Source: a virus
Lineage: Duplodnaviria; Caudoviricetes
IMG/VR virus record: IMGVR_UViG_3300018405_000011
Length of the DNA stretch: 64,000 nt
Direction: 5' to 3' (one strand)
This document shows positions 13,433-23,666 of this stretch, piece by piece. Numbering within the stretch: the first letter of the stretch is position 1; the number at the start of each line of letters is the position of its first letter. A model generated the notes under the pieces. It was given only the letters and a program-made list of their open reading frames with translations, searched no databases and was not told the origin of the DNA. A program made the position numbers and the translations under genes.

Positions 13433-14209
13433 ATGGGATTCCTAAAGGTAAATATTAACGATACGCAAACATCCCATGTTACTGATAAAAGAGGAAAGGT
13501 TATGAAAGATAAACTGACTGAGTTTTTAAATGCAAACCCAGAAGTAATGCAAGACTGGTTAGAAGGCGGCAGTAATATAAAGTCTGTCTATAAATCCCTC
13601 ATTCGTGAACAACTGGGCAATCCAGTTATATTCTTAGATGTAGATGAAGTCATACAAGTTCATCGTGCTCACTTACAGGGTCTCATGATAGACCCCGTTG
13701 CTGTAGAGCTGATTCAGAGACTCTGTGACCTAACGGGGGCGAGAATTGTCTATGCTAGCGTATGGGGTACCTTTATGAACGATGGTATTACGGCGTCTTC
13801 TATTCACGAAGCGTTTGGCTTTAAAGGAATGTCATTGATGCAGACTGCGGATGGCACAGAAATGCCATGGCGTCTAGAATCCGTAACTGGAAGTGGTAAC
13901 CGTGGACGCTCTGTTCAGAAGTATCTGGCTGATAACCCACACATTAAAAACTATGTCGTTATTGATGACAGTTGGTCTGATTACATGGAAATACTGGATA
14001 AGGTCGTTGCACCAGACGGCATTGAAGGCTTCGGCGTTCGTGACTTCTACCGTGCTAAAGACATACTCGTACACGGACAGGTTCGCTCACCTGAAGAGAC
14101 ACGTCTGCCCTTTATTTACCCGCACCGTTCTCAAGGTTGCGTACGTGATATGAAAACGCCATTAGAAATCTGGCAGCTAGAACAACAAATTAAAGATAAG
14201 GAAAGCTAA
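13433..14209 (+). CDS. HAD-family phosphatase (Swiss Army Knife RNA-repair type)
   Basis: FLDVDEVI motif I, ARIVYASVW, RGRSVQKYL, YVVIDDS; start may be 13502. Confidence 0.75.
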   Translation: MGFLKVNINDTQTSHVTDKRGKVMKDKLTEFLNANPEVMQDWLEGGSNIKSVYKSLIREQLGNPVIFLDVDEVIQVHRAHLQGLMIDPVAVELIQRLCDLTGARIVYASVWGTFMNDGITASSIHEAFGFKGMSLMQTADGTEMPWRLESVTGSGNRGRSVQKYLADNPHIKNYVVIDDSWSDYMEILDKVVAPDGIEGFGVRDFYRAKDILVHGQVRSPEETRLPFIYPHRSQGCVRDMKTPLEIWQLEQQIKDKES

Positions 14210-14793
14210 TGTTAGATAAGAAATGTAAAATGTGTCTTAAAGAAGGCATGGTCTATGACGAACGTGGTTCCGTGGACCGACATGTTGTGATGGGACACTG
14301 CGGGCATTGTGGTGCGCTTGTGCGTAAGCAAACCAAACCTATGGTGTCCATGGAAACATGGTTAAACATAAAGGATGAAGTATTAGTCCTTAATGAAGCA
14401 GAGTCTGACGGGTATTGGGATAAACACGCGGCGCTTAATAAGGCACTGGAGTACCTTAAAACCAACGAAGTCTGCACGACTTGTCATACAGGACACGTGG
14501 AACCTTATGCCGACCTTAGCTTAGGTGAAGAGCCTACACCGCTGATACTCTATCGTAAGTGTGGAAACCCAGACTGCGCATCCGAACCAGTAGTTTTTAC
14601 GGATGACGAATCCGACGTTCGCGTGATCATTGACTGTTTACGTGGCATGGAGAACCCAATTGCCGTAAGTCTGTCCGTGTTATACGAAGCCCGTTTATTA
14701 GGGTTTAAAGTACATGACGACGAAGGTCACTACTTAGACATCGATTTTCTGGCACAGCAAATAATGGAGCACGCTAATGATCATCAGCAGTAA
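14209..14793 (+). CDS. Zn-ribbon-containing hypothetical protein
   Basis: Four CxxC-type pairs (CKMC, CGHC, CTTC, CGNPDC). Confidence 0.7.
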   Translation: MLDKKCKMCLKEGMVYDERGSVDRHVVMGHCGHCGALVRKQTKPMVSMETWLNIKDEVLVLNEAESDGYWDKHAALNKALEYLKTNEVCTTCHTGHVEPYADLSLGEEPTPLILYRKCGNPDCASEPVVFTDDESDVRVIIDCLRGMENPIAVSLSVLYEARLLGFKVHDDEGHYLDIDFLAQQIMEHANDHQQ

Positions 14794-15781
14794 GCATGAC
14801 GTAGACAGTCACGTCTACAACTACATCCATGACAGTGGCGTACAGACTACCGTTAAAGTCTCACCATCGGGTCACTACCGCCAGGACAACTTAGACCGAA
14901 CACAACCGGTTACTCAAGATAAACGTAAATACTCGGTTATCATCTCTTCGTCTGTAGGCTGCCCTTTAAGCTGTCAGTTCTGTCATCTAACCTTACTGAA
15001 TAAACCGCATCGTGCGCTGAGTCATAAGGAAATCACGGATAACGTACTGGAAGCGATTCACGTCACCCGTGACCATGAAGACTTAAGTAGTCGCTATATC
15101 AAGCTCTGCTTTATGGGGGAAGGGGAAGCCATCCTAAACATCAGTAATGTCCGAATAGCGGCACTGGACATCATTAGTGGCGTAATGGAGCGAGGATGGG
15201 CAGCGGGGTTAGACGGTGTAGACATCGCCACCGCTTTCCCAAATGTAGGGGTAGGGAAACTCTACGAAATCATCGCCTTTAACCATGAGCTTTCTGTTAA
15301 GTGGCCTCTAAATCCGCATAACTACGAACTAAACGTTCGTGGGGAGTTTAGGTCAGTCGTCCGCTTGTTCTACTCAATGCACCATTCTAACGATGTCGAC
15401 AGAGCGAAGCTCATGCCGGGCACGGCACCACTAAGCGACGCATTACGCCGACTAGGCACCATTGCCAACAGTTCGGTAAACTTAGTTATCCACTACATGT
15501 TTATTGAAGGGGTTAATGACAGCTCAGACCAAGTCAATGAACTGGTCAATCTCATTAATGGGTTAGAGTATGCGTATAAGATACAGTTTAGAATCTTACG
15601 CTATAACCCGCCTAATGCAGATACTCGTGAAAGTCCTAGACTAAAAGACATTGTCAGTTATCTACAAGACGACTTAGCCGTGGACTTTATTAAGGTACAG
15701 TATTCTGCAGGTGAAGCTATTAAAGGTGCATGCGGGATGTTTATGGACGATATGGTCGAGGTTACTCATGGCAAAGCCTAA
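14777..15781 (+). CDS. RlmN/Cfr-like radical SAM enzyme (divergent)
   Basis: SSSVGCPLSCQFC, FMGEGEA, SMH..ND..R..LMP, YMFIEGVNDS, RYNP, IKGACGM. Confidence 0.8.
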   Translation: MIISSKHDVDSHVYNYIHDSGVQTTVKVSPSGHYRQDNLDRTQPVTQDKRKYSVIISSSVGCPLSCQFCHLTLLNKPHRALSHKEITDNVLEAIHVTRDHEDLSSRYIKLCFMGEGEAILNISNVRIAALDIISGVMERGWAAGLDGVDIATAFPNVGVGKLYEIIAFNHELSVKWPLNPHNYELNVRGEFRSVVRLFYSMHHSNDVDRAKLMPGTAPLSDALRRLGTIANSSVNLVIHYMFIEGVNDSSDQVNELVNLINGLEYAYKIQFRILRYNPPNADTRESPRLKDIVSYLQDDLAVDFIKVQYSAGEAIKGACGMFMDDMVEVTHGKA

Positions 15782-23177: not shown

Positions 23178-23666
23178 ATGAATACTAATATGACAAAACC
23201 AATTGCAATTATTTGCATTGGTCCTGGGTGTTCAGGGAAGTCTACCTTTGCTCGCAAACTGGTTGCGGAAAAGCAATTTGTCGAAGTGAACCGCGACAGC
23301 ATTCGTTTTCCTGATGGGGTTATCGATTGGTCAAAGTGGGAAAGCACTCCAGCTAACGAGCAGGAAGTAACGGACGACTGGAACCGTCGCTTAGATAATG
23401 CAATTTGCTTAGGTAAGAACATTGTTATTAGTGATACTAATTTAAATGTTAATCGCCGTGAAGAATATTTGTCACGCAAGCTTACCTTAGCGGGCTACGA
23501 AGTAGAACTGAAGTACTTTGTAGAAAATCTACTTACTCTATTGACGCGCAATGCCGAGCGCGATAAAGACGCTCTGCCTGAAGAAGTTATCGTTTCGCAG
23601 CAACGGAGACTACTCCGTGAACTAATGGACGAAGCCGATGACGTTTTAGCTTCCATTCGTAACTAA
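23178..23666 (+). CDS. Polynucleotide kinase-like P-loop kinase (PseT kinase half)
   Basis: IGPGCSGKSTFA, VNRDSIR, VISDTNLN, RNAER. Confidence 0.8.
   Translation: MNTNMTKPIAIICIGPGCSGKSTFARKLVAEKQFVEVNRDSIRFPDGVIDWSKWESTPANEQEVTDDWNRRLDNAICLGKNIVISDTNLNVNRREEYLSRKLTLAGYEVELKYFVENLLTLLTRNAERDKDALPEEVIVSQQRRLLRELMDEADDVLASIRN

Follow-up and report, generated by a model that had tools for sequence, protein, structure and literature searches.

Radical methylation of sp2 carbons has its textbook example in RlmN and Cfr, which use a two-cysteine mechanism, and removing the second cysteine is the standard means of leaving the enzyme trapped on its RNA. RlmN is a dual-specificity C2-methyl synthase acting on A2503 of 23S ribosomal RNA (rRNA) and A37 of transfer RNA (tRNA) (family model TIGR00048; PDB 3RFA, 5HR6/5HR7 and 6FZ6), and Cfr is the C8-methyl synthase for 23S rRNA A2503 (PDB 9P0P; cryo-electron microscopy complex, bioRxiv 10.64898/2026.02.27.707579). 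The resolving Cys, C118 in RlmN and C105 in Cfr, deprotonates the carbon under attack in the cross-linked radical intermediate, which leads to C–S fragmentation; RlmN C118A/S and Cfr C105A/S stay cross-linked and were the source of the RlmN-tRNA and Cfr-rRNA structures (PMC9692996; bioRxiv 10.64898/2026.02.27.707579). The Cfr variant E91A behaves like C105A (PMC2836569). Also related are the phrog_27142 proteins of jumbo phages (201phi2-1 gp434, CcrColossus gp283, Brevundimonas phages and Tunturi_5 gp170), labelled 'Fe-S-cluster redox domain-containing', a name with no tested function behind it. Here we describe P0001, an RlmN/Cfr-like radical S-adenosylmethionine (SAM) protein encoded in a 64,000-nucleotide stretch (hereafter the window) of the virus record IMGVR_UViG_3300018405_000011 (Duplodnaviria; Caudoviricetes) in IMG/VR, which keeps the methyl-carrier Cys, lacks the resolving Cys and shares this combination with a large, almost exclusively viral clade. 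Coordinates are listed in Table 1.

Family assignment and predicted fold

P0001 matched the NCBIfam RlmN/Cfr models with E-values of 1e-14 to 4e-20, all far under the cut-offs: 72 bits for TIGR00048 (E 3.9e-20, cut-off 290), 53 bits for PRK11194 (cut-off 633) and 64–67 bits for the Cfr models TIGR04432 and NF000424 (cut-offs 530–550). As the scores are far below the Cfr model cut-offs, they give no ground for expecting a Cfr-type resistance function. Pfam generated a sub-threshold radical SAM match only, identity to RlmN was about 20%, and phrog_27142 was matched at E 8.8e-22 (79 bits, best stretch residues 193–323). The AlphaFold (AF2) model of P0001, built on 43 homologs, reached a mean predicted local distance difference test (pLDDT) score of 94.6, and its top Foldseek matches were 6fz6, E. 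coli RlmN and Cfr. Alignment with the RlmN-tRNA cross-linked complex (5hr6/5hr7) using VIA-align gave Z 28.1 and a root-mean-square deviation of 2.6 Å over 264 residues; Z was 25–28 for RlmN, 19.5 for Cfr and 15.7 for the next family, pyruvate formate-lyase (PFL) activase.

As the profile, Foldseek and VIA-align results agree, P0001 is, as modelled, an RlmN/Cfr-type core from which the N-terminal HhH2 domain is missing. The model contains the RlmN-type partial triosephosphate isomerase (TIM) barrel with its β-sheet extension, and residues 1–327 map onto RlmN 81–363. The HhH2 domain (RlmN 1–80) was regarded as absent because the alignment begins at RlmN residue 81, in agreement with a preliminary description, made from the window alone, that had reported a missing N-terminal helical domain. 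Pfam did not detect HhH2 (PF21016) in P0001, and the canonical proteins P0113 and P0114 have it. The N-terminus of P0001 lines up with the N-termini of its homologs in the alignment, and its start overlaps the end of the upstream open reading frame (ORF) by 17 nt. An extra helix-loop insertion at about residues 157–190 contains the invariant N179.

Loss of the resolving cysteine and its conservation

P0001 was aligned to solved RlmN and Cfr chains with HMMER, the numbering of E. coli RlmN being verified on the 3rf9 sequence and the Cfr chain reading S103-F104-C105 and C112/C116/C119 as published. C62, C66 and C69, in residues 51–69 (KYSVIISSSVGCPLSCQFC), fall on the cluster Cys residues, and Ile55 takes the place of RlmN C118 (Cfr C105), the residue seven positions ahead of the first cluster Cys, the alignment being free of insertions and deletions between the two sites. 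C319, within residues 315–321 (IKGACGM), falls on RlmN C355 and Cfr C338, GACGMF lying opposite AACGQL. The replacement of C118 by Ile, the retention of the methyl-carrier Cys and the change of MGMGEP to MGEGEA (residues 113–118), all put forward in the preliminary description, were thus confirmed in P0001, and its statement that C118 mutants accumulate an enzyme-RNA adduct agrees with the persistent cross-link of C118A/S RlmN (PMC9692996).

A word-indexed search recovered 110 homolog clusters with 31–65% identity to P0001. None of 107 close homologs has Cys at position 55, where Phe, Ile or Val is found, and all keep C319. A profile search of 1.84 billion representatives yielded 148 clusters at E <= 1e-30. 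In all collected sequences of the Cys-less clade (n = 215), the counts at position 55 are Phe 148, Val 32, Ile 28 and Cys 0; retention of Cys by the homologs, which would have spoken against the earlier claim, was not found family-wide. The catalytic motifs are intact: the CxxxCxxC cluster motif is invariant in 195 of 195 full-length members, C319 in 199 of 199 members, and the G-x-G-[ED] motif across the clade (195–215 sequences). Judged from these alignments, the Cys-less state is ancient and conserved in more than 200 diverged sequences. Two full-length members contain just four Cys residues in all and so have no fifth Cys, and 96 of the 195 have no Cys at position 58 or 111. E115, the altered residue of MGEGEA, is limited to the subclade of the window (30 of 215), where it always co-occurs with Ile or Val55 and Cys111; most members have MGMGEA or MGMGDA. 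For RlmN, the thiyl radical is proposed to be stabilised by the backbone of the MGMGEP Met that E115 replaces (PMC9692996).

Phylogeny and distribution

A maximum-likelihood tree of 127 rows was rooted on two canonical RlmN proteins. The phage-type clade received a Shimodaira–Hasegawa-like approximate likelihood ratio test (SH-aLRT) value of 100. With this root, loss of the N-terminal domain and replacement of an RlmN Glu by His239 are common to all phage-type forms, and Cys loss at position 55 defines one large subclade of them, the Phe/Ile/Val55 clade (SH-aLRT 99; 111 of 127 rows), which includes the window and gp104 of Klebsiella phage 05F01. Outside this Cys-less clade are the phage-type forms that keep the Cys, namely Tunturi_5 gp170 and three metagenomic proteins. 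A Tyr55 clade within the phage-type clade (SH-aLRT 100) contains 201phi2-1 gp434, CcrColossus gp283 and proteins of Brevundimonas phages.

Only two of 185,579 species genomes carry a member of the Cys-less clade, both on contigs of metagenome-assembled genomes, and the clade was therefore regarded as almost only viral. Klebsiella phage 05F01 is the sole cultured phage with a member (38% identity), and near-identical DNA to the window was not found in cultured phages.

The Tyr-type sister clade of cultured jumbo phages has Tyr at the resolving site, Asn111 and Arg115 (M-A-R-G-E-P) and, by its alignment, represents a further natural form of this active site. At the resolving-Cys site, single-base changes are enough to interconvert the codons for Cys, Tyr and Phe.

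Comparison with RlmN, Cfr and phrog_27142 proteins

P0001 and its clade resemble RlmN in the fold, the CxxxCxxC motif, the G-x-G-E SAM motif, the β-sheet extension, the C-terminal-loop Cys in A-C-G-[QM] and a likely link to tRNA (see below). They differ from it in lacking HhH2, in having Ile, Phe or Val for C118 and His239 for Glu, in the extra helix-loop insertion and in being virus-specific. An equivalent of RlmN E105 (Cfr E91), the conserved Glu of the strand that precedes β1 and essential in Cfr, also appears not to be conserved, although the alignment is uncertain there: the corresponding residues 35–47 are the most variable segment, rich in insertions and deletions, with no invariant acid. 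Features shared with Cfr are the class A scaffold, the R-Y-N-P motif after strand β6, an aromatic residue at 199, and S53 and C/S111 for Ser103 and Ser153; unlike in Cfr, the C105 position is replaced and the N-terminal domain is gone. The phrog_27142 proteins, the sister group in the tree, likewise have no N-terminal domain and possess His239 and the methyl-carrier Cys, but carry Tyr (201phi2-1 type) or Cys (Tunturi_5 type) at the C118 site and keep a Glu aligned with E105, whereas the clade of the window has Phe, Ile or Val at that site and K109, D146, D149, R196, F198, R272, K306, Q308 and S310 as invariant residues of its own.

Several of these residues lie at substrate-contacting positions of Cfr. 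The residues by which Cfr holds the ribose and phosphate of A2503 (Ser103, Ser153 and Asn288) have S53, C/S111 and R272 as their counterparts in the alignment; a neighbouring base is contacted in Cfr by Asn208 and Thr210, whose positions are taken by R196 and F198 (bioRxiv 10.64898/2026.02.27.707579). Q308 was placed opposite Cfr Arg327 by its spacing from the methyl-carrier Cys. The RNA contacts are thus changed in the clade at four positions (N208 to R196, T210 to F198, N288 to R272 and R327 to Q308), and the pocket looks still ribonucleotide-like, with altered local recognition.

Candidate substitutes for the resolving cysteine

C111, the counterpart of Cfr Ser153 in the HMMER alignment, is on strand β2, which neighbours strand β1 with residue 55. 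In Cfr, Ser153 hydrogen-bonds the ribose of A2503 (bioRxiv 10.64898/2026.02.27.707579). In the raw counts, residues 55 and 111 vary together across the clade: C111 is present in 65 of 65 members with Ile, Val, Leu or Met55, and members with Phe55 have Ser111 (101) or Cys111 (37). Beyond the clade, Tyr55 pairs with Asn111 and Cys55 with Ser111. The pattern suggests that C111 may be a relocated resolving Cys in the Ile/Val55 subclade of the window.

Tyr199 was considered as a compensating residue and rejected. Tyr is found there in all Tyr-type and most Cys-less proteins, but about 30 Cys-less members have Ile, Val, Leu, Phe or Trp, the Cys-keeping phage forms are split between two with Leu (Tunturi_5 among them) and two with Tyr, Cfr has Phe, and by strand alternation the side chain probably points away from the pocket. 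A partner protein giving a Cys in trans was likewise rejected, as clustering of 646 neighbour ORFs from 30 loci revealed no universal neighbour and the Cys-rich ORF upstream of P0001 is found in the window and L002 only.

Gene neighbourhoods

A tRNA or RNA-repair link was found in 13 of 17 gene-neighbourhood lineages, the linked genes being tRNA arrays, Rnl1, PNKP, RlaP, Thg1-like, CCA-adding enzyme, YqeY and HAD_SAK_2. Genes related to nicotinamide adenine dinucleotide (NAD) occur in 3 of 17, in place of or besides these. In the window and its nearest relative, L002, a HAD_SAK_2 gene lies two genes upstream of the homolog, and the window has a PNK-type kinase gene 7 kb downstream. T4-type Rnl1 and PNKP are encoded two to three genes downstream in L003 and L005. 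An RNA ligase gene (PF09414) adjoins the homolog in L011 and L012, with 18–20 tRNA genes around. A Thg1-like gene is directly upstream in L013–16, and these loci, as well as L025 and L026, also have RlaP and tRNAs. In L018 and L020–24, YqeY is directly upstream and RlaP is present; a YqeY-like gene is also in the same block as the homolog in Klebsiella phage 05F01. L028 contains PNKP and RlaP, and L029 a PNKP fragment, CCA-adding enzyme and RlaP. The homolog is surrounded by 18 tRNA genes and a transfer-messenger RNA (tmRNA) gene in L017, and a tRNA-Gln gene ends about 90 nt upstream of it in L030. Two loci from genome collections carry three tRNAs (L035) and Rnl1 (L036).

In whole records, the main tRNA cluster encloses the homolog in G002, G003 and G006 and is 6 kb from it in G007. 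G003 and G004 (contigs of 152 and 228 kb) each have one RlaP gene only, which in both cases falls inside the 17-kb locus. The Tyr-type genes of CcrColossus and Marchewka are 2–3 kb from a CCA-adding enzyme gene.

Three further observations were made at these loci. The halves of a PNKP-like end-healing enzyme appear to be split in the window, the HAD_SAK_2 phosphatase and the AAA_33 kinase being encoded 9 kb apart, and a phmmer search of the window with phage seeds yielded no RNA ligase. Position 37 of a tRNA is normally a purine, and some tRNAs beside the radical SAM gene have a pyrimidine: tRNA-Glu(UUC) with U37, tRNA-Asp(GUC) with C37 and tRNA-Pro(GGG) with U37. This may have to do with evasion of anticodon nucleases, which PMC10264068 proposes for phage tRNAs. 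The array of L017 includes, with its tmRNA gene, a CUA-anticodon tRNA called tRNA-Pyl by ARAGORN, which may be a TAG suppressor, so that the phage may recode TAG.

Proposed function and mechanism

That the Cys-less clade has persisted so long with its catalytic motifs intact speaks for a functional enzyme. We favour the reading that P0001 is an active enzyme from a virus-specific branch of the class A radical SAM methyl synthases, directed at tRNA and able to resolve its intermediate without the canonical Cys, a reading that we regard as evenly poised between right and wrong. Its substrate would be a tRNA, most simply an anticodon-loop purine by analogy with RlmN at A37, and the enzyme would count among the tools with which large phages supply and repair tRNA. 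As in RlmN, one SAM would at first methylate C319; a second would give the 5′-deoxyadenosyl radical, which would generate the C319-CH2 radical for addition to the base, and the adduct would be deprotonated by a group other than the canonical Cys. In the Ile/Val55 subclade the candidate base is C111 on the neighbouring strand. The Phe55/Ser111 subclade would need a non-Cys base, for which the clade-invariant charged residues K109, D146, D149, R196, H239 and R272 are candidates.

The methylation could improve decoding by the tRNA or, once the tRNA has been repaired, make it resistant to host anticodon nucleases. A parallel for the latter is Hen1 of the bacterial Pnkp/Hen1 system, a methylase whose gene accompanies those for RNA end healing and sealing and whose mark shields mended RNA from re-cutting. 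The analogy is functional only, as Hen1 differs in fold and chemistry, being a SAM-dependent 2′-O-methyltransferase.

Several observations weigh against the favoured reading. Loss of the resolving Cys blocks turnover in RlmN and Cfr (PMC9692996; PMC2836569; bioRxiv 10.64898/2026.02.27.707579). The column survey found no possible replacement for this Cys conserved across the whole clade; relocation to C111 cannot explain the Phe55/Ser111 majority, Ser111 being present in about half of the clade, and the covariation of positions 55 and 111, with only 4–5 independent contrasts on the tree, is not significant. As to the tRNA link, the homolog has no universal neighbour, four lineages have no tRNA or RNA-repair gene within 8 kb, and there is no tRNA gene within the window. 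Accessory genes of large phages cluster anyway; the background control for this was limited to where the tRNA and RlaP genes lie in five records.

More tentatively, and as something we consider possible yet rather doubtful, the clade either performs class A methyl transfer without any Cys base, as in the Phe55/Ser111 members, or is a natural counterpart of the C118A mutant and ends as a covalent protein-tRNA adduct; either would be undescribed tRNA chemistry against host anticodon nucleases.

Alternative explanations

The main rival reading has the enzyme act on a small adenine nucleotide (NAD, ADP-ribose or a nucleotide signal) or another non-RNA molecule. P0001 is without HhH2, the domain through which RlmN and Cfr recognise RNA tertiary structure, a loss that would reflect such a substrate; NAD-salvage genes (NAPRTase and a nicotinamide mononucleotide (NMN)-adenylyltransferase-like protein) are near the homolog in L019 and L029; and in Klebsiella phage 05F01 the gene immediately upstream is one for ADP-ribosylation. 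We nevertheless consider a non-RNA substrate improbable, given that NAD genes occur in far fewer lineages than tRNA and RNA-repair genes and that invariant Arg and Lys residues occupy positions contacting RNA phosphate and neighbouring bases in Cfr.

Methylation of 23S rRNA at or near A2503, by which host ribosomes would be tuned for the phage, is unlikely to be the function. The homology to RlmN and Cfr, with the Cfr-like RYNP motif and aromatic residue 199, agrees with such a target, and some database annotations call the homologs rRNA methyltransferases; but P0001 is missing the N-terminal domain, with which Cfr grips H91/H92 in its complex with rRNA, the equivalents of Cfr contacts to the 2501–2505 strand are altered, and the neighbourhoods indicate tRNA rather than ribosome genes.

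In the preliminary description, it was proposed that the enzyme resolves its intermediate differently, acts on a new substrate, or cross-links deliberately to RNA as a suicide trap. The first two proposals fit the conserved Cys-less state, the retained catalytic motifs and the changed RNA-contact residues; the suicide trap is chemically possible but unsupported by anything tested. For the latter, in which a single-turnover enzyme left covalently on RNA would itself be the product, one can cite the cross-linked Cys variants of RlmN and Cfr, the C105A-like behaviour of Cfr E91A together with the want of an invariant acid in that segment of the clade (where the alignment is uncertain), and the two members without Cys beyond the cluster and methyl-carrier residues. 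It fits poorly because the gene is embedded in phage tRNA arrays and RNA-repair modules, thus accompanying genes that supply and mend tRNA, not genes that destroy it. Stoichiometric removal of tRNA would also be costly compared with a nuclease, and the subclade of the window strictly keeps a Cys at the active-site position beside residue 55. We hold a suicide trap to be very unlikely.

Modification of phage DNA bases (hypermodification against restriction) was the weakest alternative and can nearly be dismissed: large phages use radical chemistry in DNA modification, and Dam methylase, uracil-DNA glycosylase (UDG)-family, thymidylate kinase or ribonucleotide reductase genes are near some loci, but there is no consistent DNA-modification partner, the positions binding the ribose 2′-OH and 3′-O in Cfr are kept as Ser or Cys, and the tRNA/RNA-repair context is far more frequent.

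Other features of the window

The window is, on sequence grounds, part of a phiKZ-like jumbo phage. A 797-aa virion protein shows 57% identity to Vibrio phage vB_VmeM-Yong, nearby genes encode an endolysin, PhoH and a protein with a weak match to a phiKZ internal head protein, and P0001 is also recorded on a 215-kb contig. The Cys-rich ORF directly upstream of P0001 matched no Pfam or PHROG family; it may encode a zinc-ribbon partner or an unrelated small protein. Two ORFs downstream of P0001, syntenic in L002, have N-terminal parts that look hydrophobic; the first matches phrog_14936 (function unknown), and the second matches nothing.

Table 1. Locations of P0001, its sites and other features in the window, and of features in related loci (locus name before the colon).
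Feature	Location	Strand	Basis
RlmN/Cfr-like radical SAM protein P0001, 334 aa	14777..15781	+	ORF list and translation
GGAG Shine-Dalgarno sequence, 7 nt before P0001 ATG	14766..14769	+	Read from sequence
Ile55 codon, site of the resolving Cys (RlmN C118, Cfr C105)	14939..14941	+	HMMER alignments, column counts
C62-x3-C66-x2-C69, radical SAM [4Fe-4S] cluster motif	14960..14983	+	Aligns with RlmN C125/C129/C132
Cys111 codon, sole remaining Cys of P0001; aligns with Cfr Ser153, on strand beside Ile55	15107..15109	+	Alignment to 9p0p numbering
MGEGEA (113–118), counterpart of RlmN SAM-binding motif MGMGEP	15113..15130	+	Alignment
His239 codon, near-invariant across phage-type clades (RlmN Glu, Cfr Ala)	15491..15493	+	Alignment
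Cys319 codon in GACGMF, methyl carrier (RlmN C355, Cfr C338)	15731..15733	+	Alignment; invariant in 199/199
HAD_SAK_2 (PF18143) phosphatase, RNA-repair 'Swiss Army Knife' type	13433..14209	+	Pfam E 5.6e-15; same arrangement in L002
194-aa Cys-rich ORF, nine Cys mostly in CxxC-type pairs; overlaps P0001 start	14209..14793	+	Kept only in nearest relative L002
P-loop kinase (AAA_33), like kinase half of L003 PNKP	23178..23666	+	Pfam E 6.3e-13; phmmer E 6.6e-25 to L003 PNKP
ORF downstream of P0001, 132–172 aa	15831..16229	+	phrog_14936 match
ORF downstream of P0001, 391 aa	16235..17410	+	
Tyr-type gene, 201phi2-1 gp434	L031:3875-4783		
Tyr-type gene, CcrColossus gp283	L032:3962-4867		
Tyr-type gene	L034:3890-4822		
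Pyrimidine-37 tRNA gene	L013:7025-7099		
Pyrimidine-37 tRNA gene	L025:7778-7853		
Pyrimidine-37 tRNA gene	L035:2715-2789		
Pyrimidine-37 tRNA gene	L009:1621-1697		
tmRNA gene	L017:10513-10908		
CUA-anticodon tRNA gene	L017:16278-16353		ARAGORN call tRNA-Pyl

Significance

A literature search on phage RlmN-like enzymes found no paper describing the Cys-less clade, and the reviews searched contained no phage-encoded enzyme of RlmN/Cfr-like type. The existence of a natural and diverse Cys-less family means that the finishing step of the reaction can be done another way, or is left undone on purpose, and the matched natural variants at this site (Cys, Tyr, Phe, and Ile with Cys111) can be used to work out that step. 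A tRNA-directed P0001 would bring a base-modifying enzyme into the phage kit of tRNA genes, ligases, kinases and nucleotidyltransferases, which is thought to sustain translation when hosts attack tRNAs.

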